From Minisyncoccota bacterium (GTDB lineage Bacteria; Patescibacteriota; Minisyncoccia; Phycocordibacterales; VMEP01), in the NCBI GenBank assembly GCA_041661305.1, contig JBAZUR010000001.1, forward strand, positions 234,101 through 298,100: a stretch of DNA of 64,000 nt. Reading direction: 5' to 3'. The notes below the pieces were generated by a model. The model ran no database searches, was not told where the DNA came from, and worked only from the letters and a program-made list of their open reading frames with translations. The position numbers and the translations under genes are program-made. This document shows positions 4,304 to 55,027 of the stretch, one piece after another (the first letter of the stretch is position 1; every line of letters starts with the position of its first letter).

Positions 4304-4393
4304 AAAATACCTCCTAAAAACATTGCGCAGTGCGACGGCACGAGCATAGTAAATTTTCAGCAGAAAATTATACGCGTTTTTGGGAGGTATTTT
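4304..4393 (+). repeat. Copy A of the dispersed structured repeat family (AGCA-loop element)
   Basis: Outer 18-bp inverted repeat AAAATACCTCCTAAAAAC / GTTTTTGGGAGGTATTTT. Core CATTGCGCAGTGCGACGGCACGAGCATAG. Inner hairpin AATTTTC-AGCA-GAAAATT followed by TATACGCG. Related copies lie at 22699-22788, 22090-22220, 47631-47717, 13700-13850 and 40760-40850. Confidence 0.7.
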
Positions 4394-12695: not shown

Positions 12696-12825
12696 GGCTG
12701 TTTCCTCCCCCGATAAGTTGAACAAAACTACCTCATTTATAATACCACGAGAGTTGAGGGATGGGAAGAGTGGAAAAATGCGCATCAAACCCCAACACCC
12801 CAAAGCTCTATGATATAATTTTTTT

Positions 12826-13245
12826 ATGTTACAAGACGACATTTTAAGTATTAAGTGGGCAAAACGTGGAGTAGTTGGTTCCATCATGCTAACTCTCATT
12901 ATTACCGCCCTAGAGTTTCCCCCACCAATTGGGTTTGAAACAAGACCTCAAGATAACGTCTCTCTTCTTTGGTTAGCGTATTTTTTTATAATTTTAATTG
13001 CTGAAATATCTGCGATACCTCTAATTTACAAAAGACCAATGCTTGGTGCGTATCTTGCAATAACCTCAGCAGTTTTAAATATTCTTTTTGTAATCGCCGA
13101 CCAGCTTCATCTACTACAGCCGGAAGTAGCAACTCCGCTCTATTCAATAATCGAGGGTGTTGGCGCGATTGTTTCAATGGCTCTTATATATTTTGCGTGG
13201 AAAGTACTTCAATTCAATTCCGAAGTTAATAATTTAATCAAATAA
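12826..13245 (+). CDS. Hypothetical integral membrane protein (139 aa, about 4 TM)
   Basis: Hydrophobic segments throughout. No recognisable domain. Confidence 0.5.
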   Translation: MLQDDILSIKWAKRGVVGSIMLTLIITALEFPPPIGFETRPQDNVSLLWLAYFFIILIAEISAIPLIYKRPMLGAYLAITSAVLNILFVIADQLHLLQPEVATPLYSIIEGVGAIVSMALIYFAWKVLQFNSEVNNLIK

Positions 13246-13249
13246 TATT

Positions 13250-13618
13250 ATGGAAATTACAATATTTTTAGCAAAATTCTGGGGTAGTCTTTTTATGGTT
13301 CTTGGTGGATTATCTATTGGAGCAAAGTTTTTAGGAAGAGTCATTGAATATACCGAGGATAAATCTGTAACAATATCTACTGGGTATATTACTTTTTTAC
13401 TTGGCTTAGCTACTGTTGTTGCACATAGCGTCTGGGTTAATGATTGGAGGCTCGTCATTACTCTTTTGGGTTGGACTACCCTACTTAAAGGAGTTATGAA
13501 AATCGGATTTCCGGAACATATCAATAAAAAAGCTCAGATGTTTAGGGGCCAGTCAGCCCTCTGGGGTGCTGTTATATTTATTTTTGGAACTTGGCTGTTT
13601 TGGATGGGGGTTAATTAA
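13250..13618 (+). CDS. Hypothetical integral membrane protein (122 aa, about 4 TM)
   Basis: Tandem with the preceding membrane ORF. Hydrophobic throughout. Confidence 0.5.
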   Translation: MEITIFLAKFWGSLFMVLGGLSIGAKFLGRVIEYTEDKSVTISTGYITFLLGLATVVAHSVWVNDWRLVITLLGWTTLLKGVMKIGFPEHINKKAQMFRGQSALWGAVIFIFGTWLFWMGVN

Positions 13619-13699
13619 GAGAAGTGGTCACGCATAATTTTCTAAGGCTTTGCAAATTTTAATGGTCACAAGTCACTAAGTTTTTTGTAGCTAACCACT

Positions 13700-13850
13700 A
13701 CAGAGAACCGCGAGTACGCTTCGGTCACGGATAAATTTTTGCTAAAATTTTCCGCTACCCCGACTCGCGCCGTCACGCTCCGTCTTTCGATTCTCTGACG
13801 CGAGTAAAGTGATTTACTCGCTTAGGGTCGCAAAAATTGGGCTTTGCTAA
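13700..13850 (-). repeat. tRNA-Glu-proximal copy of the AGCA-loop repeat family, with an additional partial fragment at 13621-13665
   Basis: In minus orientation: CAGAGAATCGAAAGACGGAGCGTGACGGCGCGAGTCGGGGTAGCGG, then the hairpin AAAATTTT-AGCA-AAAATTT, then TATCCGTGACC...CGGTTCTCTG. The outer stem CAGAGAA/TTCTCTG resembles the tRNA-Glu T-stem. This copy is close to the one at 40760-40850. Confidence 0.6.
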
Positions 13851-13856
13851 TTTTTG

Positions 13857-13928
13857 CGACCCTACAGAGAATCGAACTCTGATTCCCGCCTTGAGAAGGC
13901 GGTGTCCTAACCGTTAGACGATAGGGCC
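13857..13928 (-). tRNA. tRNA-Glu (anticodon CUC)
   Basis: GGCCCUAUCGUCUAACGGUUAGGACACCGCCUUCUCAAGGCGGGAAUCAGAGUUCGAUUCUCUGUAGGGUCG folds as a cloverleaf with a 7-bp acceptor, D-arm, anticodon loop UUCUCAA and T-loop UUCGAUU. It resembles E. coli tRNA-Glu. CCA is not encoded. Confidence 0.8.
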
Positions 13929-14034
13929 TCTTTAAAACAAAATACCAAAAAATCATAGCAATTTAAGAGGAAATTTACAATTCAAAAATGATGAAGCCCG
14001 CATTCCTGCGGGCTTTGGTCTGAGGTGAGTTGGC

Positions 14035-22089: not shown

Positions 22090-22220
22090 TCTCGTGCCAC
22101 GCATAATTTCTTGCTAGAAATTAGCTCGGCCCCGACTCGCCTCGTCAGGCTCCGTCTCTCAATTGCTTCACATATCGCAATTGAGCGTCGCACTGCGCAA
22201 TGTTTTTTGAGGGGTATTTT
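22090..22220 (-). repeat. Copy C of the AGCA-loop repeat family (a longer variant)
   Basis: In minus orientation: AAAATACCCCTCAAAAAACATTGCGCAGTGCGACG, then an inserted hairpin CTCAATTGC..GCAATTGAG, then GACGGAGCCTGACGAGGCGAGTCGGGGCCGAGC, then the hairpin TAATTTCT-AGCA-AGAAATTA, then TATGCGTGGCACGAG. Confidence 0.6.
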
Positions 22221-22633: not shown

Positions 22634-22698
22634 ATACAAGTAACACTTTCAGTGGTATCTCGAAAAAAACCAAAGTCTATTGTATTCCTGATACCCCA

Positions 22699-22788
22699 GA
22701 GATACTATAGAAAGACATTGCGCAGTGCGACGGCACGAGCATAGCAAAAACTTAGCAAAGTTTTATGTGTGTCTTTCGATAGTATCTC
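22699..22788 (+). repeat. Copy B of the AGCA-loop repeat family
   Basis: Outer stem GAGATACTATAGAAAGACA / TGTGTCTTTCGATAGTATCTC. Core CATTGCGCAGTGCGACGGCACGAGCATAG identical to copy A. Inner hairpin AAAACTT-AGCA-AAGTTTT, which is compensatory relative to copy A. It is flanked by the direct repeats GTATCTCGAAAAAAA at 22663-22677 and 22779-22793. Confidence 0.7.
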
Positions 22789-40603: not shown

Positions 40604-40675
40604 TTCCGGAGTAGCTCAGCGGTAGAGCGGTCGCCTGTTAAGCGATTGGTCACAGGTTCGAATCCTGTCTCCGGA
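40604..40675 (+). tRNA. tRNA-Asn (anticodon GUU)
   Basis: UCCGGAGUAGCUCAGCGGUAGAGCGGUCGCCUGUUAAGCGAUUGGUCACAGGUUCGAAUCCUGUCUCCGGAG has a 7-bp acceptor, D-arm GCUC/GAGC, anticodon loop CUGUUAA and T-loop UUCGAAU. CCA is not encoded. Confidence 0.85.
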
Positions 40676-40687
40676 GTTGCCAAAAGT

Positions 40688-40715
40688 AAGACGCCCCAAA
40701 AGGGCGTTTTTACTT
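40688..40715 (+). terminator. Rho-independent terminator after tRNA-Asn
   Basis: GACGCCCCAAAAGGGCGTTTTTACTTTTG. Confidence 0.6.
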
Positions 40716-40759
40716 TTGTTGCAACTCCGAGAGAGCAAGTGGCTTAAGCCACTTGCGTG

Positions 40760-40850
40760 CAGGATTCGAAAGCCGGAGCGCGACGGCGCGAGGCGGGGTC
40801 GCAGAATTTTTCAGCAGAAAAATATCTGTGACCGGACTGTCTCCGGAGCA
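40760..40850 (+). repeat. tRNA-Asn-proximal copy of the AGCA-loop repeat family
   Basis: GGATTCGAAAGCCGGAGCGCGACGGCGCGAGGCGGGGTCGCAG, then the hairpin AATTTTTC-AGCA-GAAAAAT, then ATCTGTGACCGGACTGTCTCCGGAG. The outer stem CCGGAG/CTCCGG reuses the tRNA-Asn acceptor sequence and ends with an exact 12-nt copy of the tRNA 3' end. Confidence 0.6.
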
Positions 40851-41109
40851 TTAAAAACAAAGCCGCCCTTCGTGGGCGTTTTTTGTTTTTAACTACTTGG
40901 TGCGGGATTCAAACCGAAGGCGCCTAAAAATAAGGAGTGGAACGACTATATTTTTAGTGCGTTTCGAGGCTTTGCGAGAGGCGAATCCCGTCTTATTTAT
41001 CCGTGGCCGAATCCAGTTCTCCGGAAATATTCTAAATCTTTGCTTTAGGTAGCCAACTTTTTTAACCTAAATATGGTCCCAAATTTTGGTATACTTCATA
41101 TAAGAATCT

Positions 41110-47630: not shown

Positions 47631-47717
47631 TTTTTCCCTTAAAAAACGCGCATATCCGCCTGCTGGCGGATTGCTATGCTCGTATCGCCATACTGCGCAA
47701 TGTTTTTTAAGGGAAAA
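47631..47717 (-). repeat. Copy D of the AGCA-loop repeat family
   Basis: In minus orientation: TTTTCCCTTAAAAAACATTGCGCAGTATGGCGATACGAGCATAG, then the hairpin ATCCGCC-AGCA-GGCGGAT (GC-rich stem, same AGCA loop), then ATGCGCG, then the outer stem partner TTTTTTAAGGGAAA. Confidence 0.7.
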
Positions 47718-54332: not shown

Positions 54333-54575
54333 GTGAGTGCTGACTTCAACGCAAATGCCATACTGAAAGGCAACGAAGACTTCGTCGCTTTTCTCCATGA
54401 ACGTGCAAGGTGGGAAAACATCCCCGCAACCTGCGACAAGAAGTGGCTTGCAGGTTTTTGGCAAAATAACAGGGGTTTGCTTTCACACCTCTTCGTTATG
54501 GAAACCGGCAAGGTGCTCTTCGTTCCAAACGATACTGCTTTCTTCCAGCAAGCCGCCGAAGCCTATCAAGGCTAG
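54333..54575 (+). CDS. Hypothetical protein (80 aa), paralog 1 of a tandem pair
   Basis: AGGAGG Shine-Dalgarno 6 nt upstream of a GTG start. KGNEDFVAFLHERARWENIPATCDKKWLAGFWQNN...QQAAEAYQG. Followed by terminator CCCCGCATCACGCGGGG plus T-run at 54594-54622. Confidence 0.5.
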   Translation: MSADFNANAILKGNEDFVAFLHERARWENIPATCDKKWLAGFWQNNRGLLSHLFVMETGKVLFVPNDTAFFQQAAEAYQG

Positions 54576-54699
54576 CTCTCTTCCGTCCCAACCAAAAACC
54601 CCGCATCACGCGGGGCTTTTTAACATATTAACGTTTTCGAAAAACATGATAGTATCAACGCAGTTGCAACTTTAACTCAACCAATCACCGGAGGGCGAA

Positions 54700-54942
54700 A
54701 TGAACACCAGTGAAATCAAAAAGGACGCAATTAAGGGCAATGAAGAATTTGTTGCGTTCTTGCACCAACACGCGAAACAGGCGAAAATTCCCAGCAGTTG
54801 CGACAAGGCATGGCTGGCGAGTGTATGGCAACGAAACAAGGTTGTTTTCATGTTTCATTTCGCTGTACAAAAAGGGGAATCAGGCTCAACCCCGCCCACT
54901 GATGAATTTCTCAGGCAGGCCGCCGAAGCCTATCAAGGCTAG
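54700..54942 (+). CDS. Hypothetical protein (80 aa), paralog 2 of a tandem pair
   Basis: GGAGGG Shine-Dalgarno upstream of the ATG. KGNEEFVAFLHQHAKQAKIPSSCDKAWLASVWQRN...RQAAEAYQG. Followed by the near-identical terminator CCCCGCATCGCGCGGGG at 54960-54988. Confidence 0.5.
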   Translation: MNTSEIKKDAIKGNEEFVAFLHQHAKQAKIPSSCDKAWLASVWQRNKVVFMFHFAVQKGESGSTPPTDEFLRQAAEAYQG

Positions 54943-55027
54943 TTCTCTTCCGTCCCAACCAAAAACCCCGCATCGCGCGGGGCTTTTTAATTTTCTAAAA
55001 GCTATCTGCCTAAAAACTAAAAGCTTC

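Follow-up and report, generated by a model that had tools for sequence, protein, structure and literature searches.

A structured non-coding element with tRNA-derived arms at tRNA and tmRNA 3′ ends in Patescibacteria, a candidate mobile cassette

Why does the DNA directly 3′ of a bacterial tRNA gene look so much like the tRNA gene itself? The question is raised by a tRNA-Glu gene on the minus strand of a 64,000-nt stretch from a Minisyncoccota bacterium (contig JBAZUR010000001.1; "the window" hereafter), beside which a preliminary description of the sequence had placed a copy of a repeat family with an AGCA loop. Our answer, to which we assign a probability of about one half, is that the element is a small, non-coding, structured cassette of Patescibacteria that is evolutionarily mobile and colonises the 3′ ends of tRNA and transfer-messenger RNA (tmRNA) genes. 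The observations that carry this answer are the conserved structure, the lineage restriction, the tRNA linkage, the tRNA-derived arms, the alternative cargos, the arrays and nested copies, and a swap of a whole unit at the level of strains.

The host gene is tRNA-Glu(CUC), the 3′ half of which has been copied into the arms of the element. Read 3′ of the tRNA on the minus strand, the order of parts is hairpin 1, TA, hairpin 2, the arm CAGAGAATCGAA, the core, a 12-nt linker and the arm CGGTTCTCTGTAGTGG. The unit that was found to be swapped comprises hairpin 1, the inverted tRNA arms, hairpin 2, the core, the linker and the direct tRNA copy. The parts of the locus and its surroundings are as follows.

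13952 to 13980, minus strand: promoter-like match upstream of tRNA-Glu, sigma-70-like, TTGTAA-17-TATGAT with a TG (a consensus match only)
13856 to 13928, minus strand: tRNA-Glu(CUC), found by ARAGORN and as an Rfam tRNA match of 59.9 bits; CCA not encoded
13689 to 13857, minus strand: whole swappable unit, from the alignment of the window with strain L143
13825 to 13862, minus strand: hairpin 1, a perfect 14-bp inverted repeat of GGGTCGCAAAAATT (13862 to 13849) and AATTTTTGCGACCC (13838 to 13825)
13823 to 13831, minus strand: inverted acceptor GCGACCCTA, reverse complement of the tRNA-Glu acceptor 3′ strand, the discriminator and one further nucleotide
13798 to 13822, minus strand: hairpin 2, AG-CGAGTAAATCACTTTACTCG-CGT, exactly at the junction of acceptor and T-stem in the inverted copy
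13786 to 13797, minus strand: 5′ arm CAGAGAATCGAA, a 12-nt run that is the exact reverse complement of the tRNA-Glu T-loop and T-stem 3′ strand (U54 to G65)
13723 to 13790, minus strand: core of 68 nt, scoring 83.1 bits (E 1e-20) with a covariance model of 113 copies
13711 to 13722, minus strand: linker GAAGCGTACTCG from the core to the 3′ arm
13695 to 13710, minus strand: 3′ arm CGGTTCTCTGTAGTGG, a degenerate direct copy of the tRNA-Glu 3′ half, where the tRNA has CGATTCTCTGTAGGGT
13662 to 13688, minus strand: ACAAAAAACTTAGTGACTTGTGACCAT, in common with strain L143, resembling two 3′ ends of helix P4 (..CTTGTGACC)
13626 to 13636, minus strand: TATGCGTGACC, an exact match to the consensus 3′ end of helix P4

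Most of what the preliminary description had reported here is borne out. The copy next to tRNA-Glu is a full one, and hairpin 1 indeed reuses the tRNA end, its 5′ strand consisting of the acceptor 3′ strand of tRNA-Glu together with the trailer. The identity of about 85% to the copy at tRNA-Asn was recovered for a 33-mer (28/33, 85%) and is 82% in an alignment of the whole 68-nt core (56/68); the core is only a part of the similarity, as the Glu and Asn flanks are homologous over about 190 nt. The outer stem, CAGAGAATCG (13797 to 13788) with CGGTTCTCTG (13710 to 13701), is recovered by RNAfold with a z value of −3.8. It had been likened to the T-arm of the tRNA, and the exact reverse complement of T-loop and T-stem in its 5′ arm makes the resemblance a true homology. 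Overlooked at that time were the exactness of this inverted T-arm and the inverted acceptor strand GCGACCCTA; since both are inverted tRNA-Glu sequence, the whole flank is to be read as an interrupted inverted copy of the tRNA 3′ half. The 5′ arm pairs with the 3′ arm over 10 bp, with one G·U, and GCGACCCTA pairs with TAGTGGTT when the trailer is folded alone with RNAfold, which results in an acceptor-like stem. Homologues of hairpin 2 are found at the matching place in the Asn locus of the window and in the related loci L026, L084, L012, and L098, and a small extra hairpin stands at the position of the linker in L013, L017, L032 (e.g. GTGACCGAAAGTGTACTCACG), L065, and L089. A further partial fragment had been claimed for positions 13621 to 13665. 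Its exact TATGCGTGACC is there, but this 11-mer is not significant (two hits at no more than one mismatch were reached in 5 of 100 shuffles) and the claimed hairpin is not supported (z −0.9); from its sequence, the fragment is a plausible decayed older copy. The adjacent ACAAAAAACTTAGTGACTTGTGACCAT is probably the remnant of an older element.

The core was searched for with a CGGAGCNNGACGNNGCGAGNCGGGGG-type pattern (CGGAGCNNGACGNNGCGAGNCGGGG) in one genome per species, which gave at least 120 loci, and 113 core copies were aligned for the structure statistics. The fold consists of a P3 helix of 3 bp, an internal loop GGA/GA, a P2 helix of 4 bp with a GACG loop, and a P4 helix of 16 bp with a bulged A, a conserved G·U pair and the AGCA loop; the sequence of P4 varies freely while its pairing is kept. 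The paired cells amount to 97.3%, compared with 31–48% when the partners are slid against each other, double changes occur in 15 of the 23 pairs, and there are 400 compensatory cells versus 97 ± 8 in shuffles. Though unconstrained in the search pattern, the four N positions of P2 covary, as does the N/N′ pair of P3, and RNAalifold independently recovers P3, P2, and the upper part of P4. The GGA/GA loop between P3 and P2 is invariant and could form tandem G·A pairs with a 1-nt bulge. Besides the G·U that is fixed in 111 of the 113 copies, G·U occurs 77 times and A·C 9 times, and this asymmetry implies that the fold matters on the tRNA-sense strand, as RNA or as single-stranded DNA (ssDNA). Compensatory changes and one-strand G·U, as expected of a structured RNA, are thus present, and folding of ssDNA of the same strand may account for them as well. 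We infer that the active form is single-stranded, i.e. RNA or possibly ssDNA.

Rfam 15 has no match over the element even at E values up to 10 in the window, the Glu region, and 23 related loci; the matches in the window and the 23 related loci are to tRNA, rRNA, tmRNA, and group I introns only, and the group I introns of tRNAs in this group of bacteria (the Candidate Phyla Radiation, CPR) are unrelated to the element. Hammerhead, twister, pistol, hatchet, hepatitis delta virus (HDV) ribozyme, group II domain V, RNase P, and signal recognition particle RNAs were rejected by inspection. Box C/D guide RNAs carry a C box (RUGAUGA) and a D box (CUGA) beside a terminal stem, with the guide 5′ of D. 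A guide RNA of this K-turn type was rejected as well, the alignment having neither box and the GUGAC of the element being paired inside P4. The dual guides of TIGR-Tas and the IS110 bridge RNA do not fit either, because the arms target one segment and pair mutually, and there are neither variable internal loops nor a linked gene. There is no signal of tRNA-type-specific lineages of the element: cores at the same tRNA type are no closer to each other than to the others (likeness 0.769 versus 0.766, permutation p 0.4).

The titles of the records that contain the core (at least 120 genome loci) are nearly all those of metagenome-assembled genomes of Patescibacteria and cover many class-level groups, among them Saccharibacteria, Paceibacterota, and Nomura-, Kaiser-, Zambryski-, Campbell-, Taylor- and Levyibacteriota. 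The family appears, by these sequence matches, to be restricted to Patescibacteria (the CPR). One match in Microbacterium does not have P4 and is a chance match in GC-rich DNA. An "Ignavibacteria" contig (L101) has nearly the same flanks around the element as a contig of Levyibacteriota (L086); the Ignavibacteria assignment of L101 is probably a binning contaminant. The window and 870 kb of sampled loci have no DNA in common that is detectable by blastn except for the element itself. There was no match to it among the 2.9 million viral contigs of IMG/VR, on which ground a phage origin was rejected, and a full-text search of the published literature found no description of the element.

The preliminary description had proposed a physical link of the family to tRNA 3′ ends from the two loci of the window, and this is strongly supported far beyond them. 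Linkage was counted among the matches listed, i.e. for 159 nhmmer hits and for 124 exact-motif hits. Eighty-four of the 159 follow a tRNA or tmRNA of the same strand at a distance of no more than 300 nt, compared with about 1–3% expected by chance; 15 more precede one on the same strand, and 8 are on the opposite strand. For 64 of the 124 exact-motif hits, a tRNA or tmRNA on the same strand ends no more than 400 nt upstream. Among the matches listed the hosts cover 18 amino-acid tRNA types (all but Gln and Met), and 4 of the 5 tmRNAs detected by ARAGORN are hosts. Some copies reside in rRNA operons, either between 16S and tRNA-Ile or in antisense orientation after 5S. A survey of tRNA 3′ flanks, as had been suggested, showed that both tRNAs of the window carry the element, and so do at least 22 of 120 bystander tRNAs in the related loci; at least about 16 of the bystanders carry a variant cargo in the same scaffold. 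The copies linked to tmRNA (L122, L048, L113, L013, L022, L096, L112) have arms from the T-arm and the acceptor end of the tmRNA (...GGGGGTTCGATTCCCCCCATCTCCAC).

The linkage is sequence-specific, because the arms of each copy derive from its own neighbouring tRNA. In the commonest class, an intact direct repeat of 19 nt extends from C56 to the 3′ end of the tRNA gene, including CCA where it is encoded. An exact 19-nt repeat is found in at least 17 loci; the two copies in the window have a degenerate repeat of 16 nt (Glu) and an exact one of 12 nt (Asn). The C56 of the repeat is at the same time the last C of the GUGACC of the core. In all cases the last nucleotides of the inverted arm are the complement of U54-U55-C56 (...GAA), after which come AG and the core; outward, the arm extends for 8–24 nt. 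Compared with its match to the direct copy, its match to the tRNA is longer in 18 loci, of the same length in 26, and shorter in 7. In another class, the 5′ strand pairs with the last nucleotides of the tRNA plus a terminator-like hairpin, and the direct repeat is absent (...GTGCGAGC-core). In a further class, a local hairpin flanked by UGAG and CAAG lies 5′ of the core. When all copies are counted, 25 form their closing helix with downstream sequence, 50 have a 5′ hairpin for it, and 17 are unclear.

Two side observations concern the arms. The UGAG-hairpin-CAAG together with the core is also found inside a partial 5′ copy of a tRNA (e.g. positions 1–24, element, positions 27–38) a few dozen nt upstream of the intact tRNA, i.e. 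in L012 (1040–1240), L107 (1160–1300, minus strand), L038, L035, L119, and L067; in L012, the flank upstream of this partial-tRNA element is duplicated as well. A recurrent module of about 47 nt, AAUGAUYNGCAAG-hairpin-CGAG...AUCAUU, directly follows tRNAs for Ser, Tyr, Trp, and Val and precedes the inverted arm (L004, L010, L045, L051, L084, L099, L109, L032, L074), and its CAAG/CGAG flanks suggest an internal loop of the GA type.

An arm complementary to the 3′ region of a tRNA brings to mind tRNA-primed retro-mobility, one of the mechanisms considered in the preliminary description. The inverted arm would then be a primer-binding site, or the two arms would correspond to a1 and a2 of a retron and the AG would contain the branching G; inverted arms that enclose structured hairpins and the conserved AG after the 5′ arm would fit. 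The complementarity, however, begins only at U54, and in L011 and L028 it continues beyond the mature 3′ end as far as the trailer or terminator. In L011, the inverted arm of 24 nt overruns the tRNA end by 3 nt into the trailer, which implies that copying took place at the level of the gene or precursor and not of the mature tRNA. In addition, no open reading frame (ORF) for a reverse transcriptase is enriched or present nearby, dozens of copies per genome are unlike single-copy retrons, and neither a retron nor any other Rfam family is matched. Bacterial reverse transcriptases usually belong to group II introns. The case is further weakened by the finding that no such introns were detected in Patescibacteria (PMC13011429). 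Altogether, a tRNA-primed retroelement or retron-like RNA is disfavoured and highly unlikely.

The direct repeat in turn resembles the attachment (att) site duplications of integrases. The element might be the scar of an integrase island or prophage, the repeat being the attR left after a deletion and the core a conserved arm of attP. Compatible with this are the start of the repeat in the T-loop, the variable gene islets downstream of tRNA-Glu described below, and a serine recombinase ORF, full or fragmentary, 1–3 kb away in 4 of the 120 loci (L096, L017, L057, L055); two of these four loci are at a tRNA or tmRNA, and the number is too small for an association. On the other hand, tRNA and direct repeat are only 110–190 bp apart in dozens of independent loci, with no ORF, i.e. 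no integrase or cargo gene, between them, and the islets lie outside and not between the tRNA and the repeat. The core abuts the repeat at a fixed nucleotide and shows RNA-like covariation, the viral contigs contain no match, and at least 18 amino-acid tRNA types would each require a matching integrase. An island scar is therefore also unlikely, and we give it very little credence.

Comparison of tRNA genes showed that the scaffold and its cargo can be told apart. At many tRNAs that do not have the core described above (type 1), other conserved cores occupy the same tRNA-derived scaffold. A second cargo, AAGGUU...ACCUGUACUG-(GUAA hairpin)-AGA, is present at tRNA-Glu in L026 and L084, tRNA-Arg in L100, tRNA-His in L098, and tRNA-Asn in L012. 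Further types are found at tRNA-Glu in L007 and tRNA-Ile in L027, and tRNAs for Cys, Lys, Ala, and Ser carry relatives in which P2 is long. The Glu loci of the window and of L026 have hairpin 1, GYGACCCTA, hairpin 2, and CAGAGARTCGAA in common and differ in the cargo, and the tRNA-Glu of L084 likewise has the scaffold of the window with a different cargo. We considered whether the inverted arm pre-exists at tRNAs without cargo, and rejected this, as such arms are rare: an inverted match of at least 8 nt occurs in 16 of 96 core-less tRNAs, and most of the 16 carry a variant cargo. The rarity of inverted arms without cargo implies that arms and cargo come as one unit. The pattern of the second cargo can be written as AAGGUU...variable hairpin...AACCUGUACUG-CYCC-UGUAA-GGRG-AGA (e.g. 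L026, 6178–6400) and has no Rfam match; the second cargo also occurs fused to type-1 cores (CAAGACCUUGAA...GGUGUACAG...CUGUAAGG).

Units can be stacked and nested. L066 has two exact tandem units of 116 nt, each ending in CAAGTCTCCCCCTCGGCAC, further arrays are found in L133, L048, and L058 and at the Asn locus of the window, and nested cores occur in L012, L019, and L097. The features of the Asn locus are given below.

40604 to 40677, plus strand: tRNA-Asn(GUU), the second host tRNA, found by ARAGORN and Rfam, which detect two tRNAs in the window
40678 to 40848, plus strand: Asn-linked element, core of 94.6 bits, fold with z −7.5
40688 to 40710, plus strand: terminator-like hairpin inside hairpin 1
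40735 to 40756, plus strand: hairpin 2
40760 to 40770, plus strand: 5′ arm CAGGATTCGAA, reverse complement of the tRNA-Asn T-loop and T-stem
40766 to 40833, plus strand: core, by the covariance model
40837 to 40848, plus strand: direct copy CTGTCTCCGGAG, exact, 12 nt
40900 to 41028, plus strand: second, degenerate tandem element after the Asn unit, from GCGGGATTCAAA to ATCCGTGGCC, with a weak nhmmer match at 40995 to 41036

The sequence ACTCCGAGAG in the Asn element is the inverted acceptor strand of tRNA-Asn, and GAATCCAGTTCTCCGGAAAT after ATCCGTGGCC is a third, decayed copy of the tRNA-Asn 3′ end. The tandem suggests, from the state of its copies, that successive insertions push older units outward.

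Turnover of whole units is seen between strains. Exact-protein look-ups for strain variation returned only contigs with 100% identity, and scanning metagenomes with the MurE encoded nearby led to the contig of strain L143. Window and contig agree at 99.2% identity along 753 nt, a stretch that takes in tRNA-Glu as far as position 72. After this position, L143 has a non-homologous unit of 170 nt in place of the 169-nt slot of the window; it belongs to the "acceptor" class and has a long P2 and a different P4. Identity resumes from 13688 for 27 nt (ACAAAAAACTTAGTGACTTGTGACCAT), the sequences then diverge, and homology is found again at window position 12771. The two breakpoints are thus placed after tRNA position 72 and at the older remnant that both strains have. 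Past this remnant, different islets are present, i.e. two small ORFs without a Pfam match in the window (12772–13656) and a KAP/AAA_16/STAND-like NTPase of 415 aa in L143 (957–2342); the region 3′ of tRNA-Glu is a variable gene hotspot that is bounded by an element remnant ending in GTGACCAT.

More distant tRNA-Glu genes linked to MurE are accompanied by two units, one of them of the T-loop class (L133), or by nothing but a pseudo-tRNA 3′ half (L137, L140), and orthologous tRNA-Glu genes elsewhere have type-1 cargo, type-2 cargo, or none. The pseudo-tRNA 3′ halves of L137 (4700–4770) and L140 (4530–4600) are free-standing (CCGGGGTTCAAATCCCCGTGGCGGTAC), differ in sequence, and have no recognisable cargo. 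Independent assemblies of the same strain from three samples end at window positions 13887 (L125), 13899 (L002/L003), and 40805 (L127/L128), i.e. inside tRNA-Glu or inside the Asn core, and look like repeat-induced breaks. The tRNA-targeted insertion that had been proposed as one possible mechanism fits the arrays, the presence and absence of units at orthologous tRNAs, and the strain-level swap, and we infer that the units originated by insertion and are exchanged as cassettes.

The same breakpoints would also be compatible with a recombination site at the level of DNA, similar to attC of integrons or the folded attP of the CTX phage and used by a tyrosine or HUH recombinase encoded elsewhere. 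The stem formed by inverted and direct copy would rebuild the double-stranded T-arm target, and tRNA 3′ ends would be the primary sites for cassettes and islets. The order tRNA(A) - spacer - A′ - core - A would be the product to expect from A-spacer-A′-core recombining within A as a small circle or hairpin; the direct repeat spans the T-loop to the 3′ end, as is said of integrases that target the T-loop; tmRNA is targeted as well; and proximal units are intact while distal ones are decayed. The strain breakpoints lie at the tRNA end and right after GTGACC motifs, with different gene islets beyond, and P4, with its bulged base and a structure more conserved than its sequence, is attC-like. Against a DNA site stand the absence of a recombinase gene linked to the copies, the lack of an orientation bias versus GC skew (a weak test), tandem-GA loops, the conserved G·U and GNRA-type loops in sister cargos, which look RNA-like, and the absence of integron-type R′/R″ boxes on inspection. 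In addition, the remaking of the arms for each tRNA is not explained. We regard this explanation as rather improbable, yet as a rival to be taken seriously.

The alternative at the level of RNA concerns transcription of the unit together with the tRNA, which had been considered as co-transcription on a 3′ trailer. It is compatible with the Glu locus, where there is no terminator-like site on the minus strand between the tRNA and the element, and a terminator-like hairpin that intervenes at the Asn locus speaks against it there. Among 50 loci, such a site precedes the element in 16, follows it in 11, and does neither in 26, so that 34 of the 50 are without one before the element. Folded alone with RNAfold, the trailer forms a stem like that of the acceptor, a hairpin, and a T-like stem on which the core sits (z −3.8 for Glu and −7.5 for Asn). 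At least at tRNA-Glu, the unit may be carried on the trailer in such a tRNA-like frame.

A host-functional trailer RNA would go one step further: the element would be a stable small RNA, set free by RNase Z or RNase P owing to a closing helix that mimics the acceptor/T minihelix, with a core that binds a CPR-specific protein or RNA, and its spread to many tRNAs would be ancient, selection or gene conversion keeping the arms matched. Conservation of the core between phylum-level lineages is extreme, with compensatory changes and the G·U asymmetry, nearly all copies are distinct and hence do not result from a burst, and the direct repeat stops exactly at the tRNA 3′ end, including CCA where encoded. 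The tRNA-like fold of the trailer, the scarcity of terminator-like sites before the element, and an inverted arm that matches the tRNA no less closely than it matches the downstream copy (see above) are also in favour. Precedents for structured RNAs in tRNA trailers are the dicistronic tRNA-snoRNA genes of plants, which are cut by RNase Z, mascRNA, and the rtT RNA of E. coli. In contrast, about half of the copies are away from tRNAs, have non-tRNA arms or a local hairpin, and are oriented randomly with respect to genes (13 co-oriented and 16 anti-oriented with the upstream gene, 17 and 16 with the downstream gene). Orthologous tRNAs are without a unit or have a different cargo, and the near-identical strain L143 has a non-homologous unit, which is hard to reconcile with an essential function in cis. 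Distal copies decay, and many direct repeats are degenerate beside an intact core. Such an RNA is a doubtful explanation, albeit a serious rival.

Comparison with known systems gave partial resemblances only. Tyrosine integrases that target tRNA and tmRNA genes, and their T-loop sublocation, were reportedly described by Williams in 2002. Their att duplications resemble the element in that a tRNA 3′ repeat runs from the T-loop to the 3′ end, tmRNA is used, arrays are possible, and the intact gene is proximal and the duplicated copy distal. Unlike integrase islands, the element is only about 110–190 bp long, has no integrase, contains an inverted tRNA copy in addition, and brings one conserved cargo with matched arms and RNA-type covariation to at least 18 amino-acid tRNA types. 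The 178-bp repeats of E. coli tyrT with their rtT RNA, reportedly studied by Egan and Landy (1978) and by Bosl and Kersten (1991), form units that each end in about 19 nt of the tRNA 3′ end, are transcribed with the tRNA, and are processed to a small RNA. Tandem units downstream of a tRNA that end in tRNA 3′ sequence are also seen in L066 and at the Asn locus of the window, but the analogy is one of architecture alone: neither sequence nor Rfam relates the two (Rfam contains RtT, which gave no match), and the tyrT repeats, confined to one enterobacterial operon, lack both an inverted arm and a conserved portable core and have not spread to other tRNAs.

Repetitive extragenic palindromic (REP) sequences and REPINs, miniature inverted-repeat transposable elements (MITEs), ERIC, Correia, and RPE are, like the element, short, non-coding, hairpin-forming, intergenic and multicopy, with a structure conserved on one strand and assemblies that break there. 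In REPINs and MITEs, the terminal repeats are conserved, whereas the element has locus-specific arms copied from the target and a conserved internal cargo; moreover, it has a strong preference for tRNAs and is conserved throughout the phylum rather than within a species. Classification as a MITE was rejected because the conserved terminal inverted repeats are missing, the arms being different at every locus and matching the local tRNA or sequence. With integron attC and the CTX attP (an integrative mobile element exploiting Xer, IMEX) the element has in common a strand-specific folded hairpin, a structure more conserved than the stem sequence, the piling up of cassettes at a fixed primary site, and a stem that can mimic a double-stranded target. 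Unlike attC, it has no R′/R″ boxes, no evidence of a linked IntI or Xer, and no ORF, and a tRNA gene serves as its primary site. Dicistronic tRNA-snoRNA genes and tRNA scaffolds similarly place a structured RNA after or inside a tRNA-like frame, and processing enzymes could set its ends; they are eukaryotic or engineered, whereas the frame of the element is a partial inverted and direct copy of the neighbouring tRNA, with the cargo at the position of the T-loop. The element is a member of none of these systems and falls among the interspersed structured non-coding elements or tRNA-linked repeats.

In the mobile-cassette reading, the cargo is the 68-nt three-helix junction, carried on the end of a hairpin that takes its arms from the adjacent tRNA. 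The 5′ arm is an inverted tRNA copy that leads outward from U54 (T-loop, T-stem, and acceptor 3′ strands) and is interrupted, where acceptor and T-stem meet, by the conserved hairpin; the 3′ arm is a direct tRNA copy from C56 to the 3′ end. The unit would insert preferentially at the 3′ end of tRNA or tmRNA genes, and each insertion would bring or regenerate the tRNA 3′ half at its distal edge; because this half is renewed, further units could be stacked while older ones decay distally. Strains may then exchange whole units, the borders of which are fixed by the tRNA and by older remnants. The fold would be selected on the tRNA-sense strand, and where no terminator intervenes, as at tRNA-Glu, the unit would be carried on the tRNA 3′ trailer, which is predicted to fold in a tRNA-like, three-way manner with an acceptor-like stem, a hairpin, and a T-like stem with the cargo. 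The layout would be the product of a small circle or hairpin (A - spacer - A′ - core) that recombines with the tRNA within A.

Several points weigh against this reading. Cores are distinct in 109 of 113 cases, and the full-length copies of the window are only 66–82% alike, so that nothing points to a recent burst; this fits an old host-functional RNA as well. The swap in L143 could be explained by ordinary homologous recombination between conserved flanks instead of transposition. No simple known mechanism results in an inverted plus a direct copy of the target, and the circle model leaves the matching of the arms unexplained. Clustering of the ORFs of 120 loci did not reveal an enriched protein family (the largest cluster covers 8 of the 120 loci), and transposases, integrases, and reverse transcriptases are not enriched near the copies in these loci. 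The non-tRNA copies have no bias of orientation, neither with respect to genes nor to local GC skew (22 versus 22, and 17 versus 17 where |skew| > 0.03; the skew was calculated over at most 8 kb and is a weak indicator), and therefore neither a read-through route nor a lagging-strand ssDNA route is supported for them. Lastly, there is the terminator-like hairpin between tRNA-Asn and its element. A RAYT or IS200-like gene was not seen in the 8-kb loci either.

A more specific proposal is that Patescibacteria have a hitherto unrecognised cassette system in which several types of core insert at tRNA and tmRNA 3′ ends, template their own closing helix, and form integron-like arrays; this is speculative and, in our view, has odds well below even. 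As a similarly tentative extension, the sites might serve as breakpoints for the exchange of non-coding cassettes and gene islets, and the folded single strand might be the intermediate of a target-templated insertion.

Patescibacteria make up a large share of bacterial diversity and have tiny genomes, and few non-coding RNAs have been validated in them. An element of 68 nt that is conserved almost nucleotide for nucleotide across their lineages, with several copies per 64 kb, and that is carried by a large fraction of the sampled tRNA and tmRNA genes is of interest in either form. If it is an RNA, it would be a new and widespread class of structured RNA with a tRNA-derived frame and would match, in nature, what has been engineered as the "tRNA scaffold". 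As a recombination substrate, it would point to a new way of tRNA-gene targeting and DNA shuffling in organisms thought to be poor in mobile elements. In practice, the units break metagenomic assemblies at tRNA genes, and the pseudo-tRNA fragments can mislead annotation. The strain-level swaps at fixed borders make the mechanism experimentally approachable. A preprint on the transcriptome of TM7x reported no validated small RNAs (10.1101/2022.03.25.485537).

The remaining copies of the window were compared with the two at tRNAs. The covariance model detects six family copies in the 64 kb, three full-length and three short relatives without the lower part of P4; the core motif has three matches in the window versus none in 100 shuffles. 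The copies away from tRNAs are the following.

22095 to 22162, minus strand: third full-length core, 73.9 bits, with no adjoining tRNA; a local 5′ hairpin replaces the tRNA arms
4318 to 4373, plus strand: short relative, 37.4 bits (E 3e-8), with the locus-specific outer stem AAAATACCTCCTAAAAAC / GTTTTTGGGAGGTATTTT
22713 to 22768, plus strand: short relative, the 3′ arm and flank of which are also found upstream, at 22646 to 22669, as a direct repeat
47650 to 47705, minus strand: short relative with a wholly different P4 stem, ATCCGCC-AGCA-GGCGGAT, which is nevertheless paired

The short relatives consist of ATTGCGCAGTGCGACGGCACGAGCATAG and the AGCA hairpin, and each lies inside a perfect, locus-specific outer stem of 16–18 bp. 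The copy at 22713 to 22768 shows the order A - spacer - A′ - core - A with an unrelated sequence, from which it follows that this order also exists away from tRNAs.

Unrelated to the element family, the window contains a direct repeat of 76 nt (54548–54623 and 54915–54990) with 96% identity, which ends in a terminator-like hairpin (CCCCGCATCACGCGGGG TTTTT).

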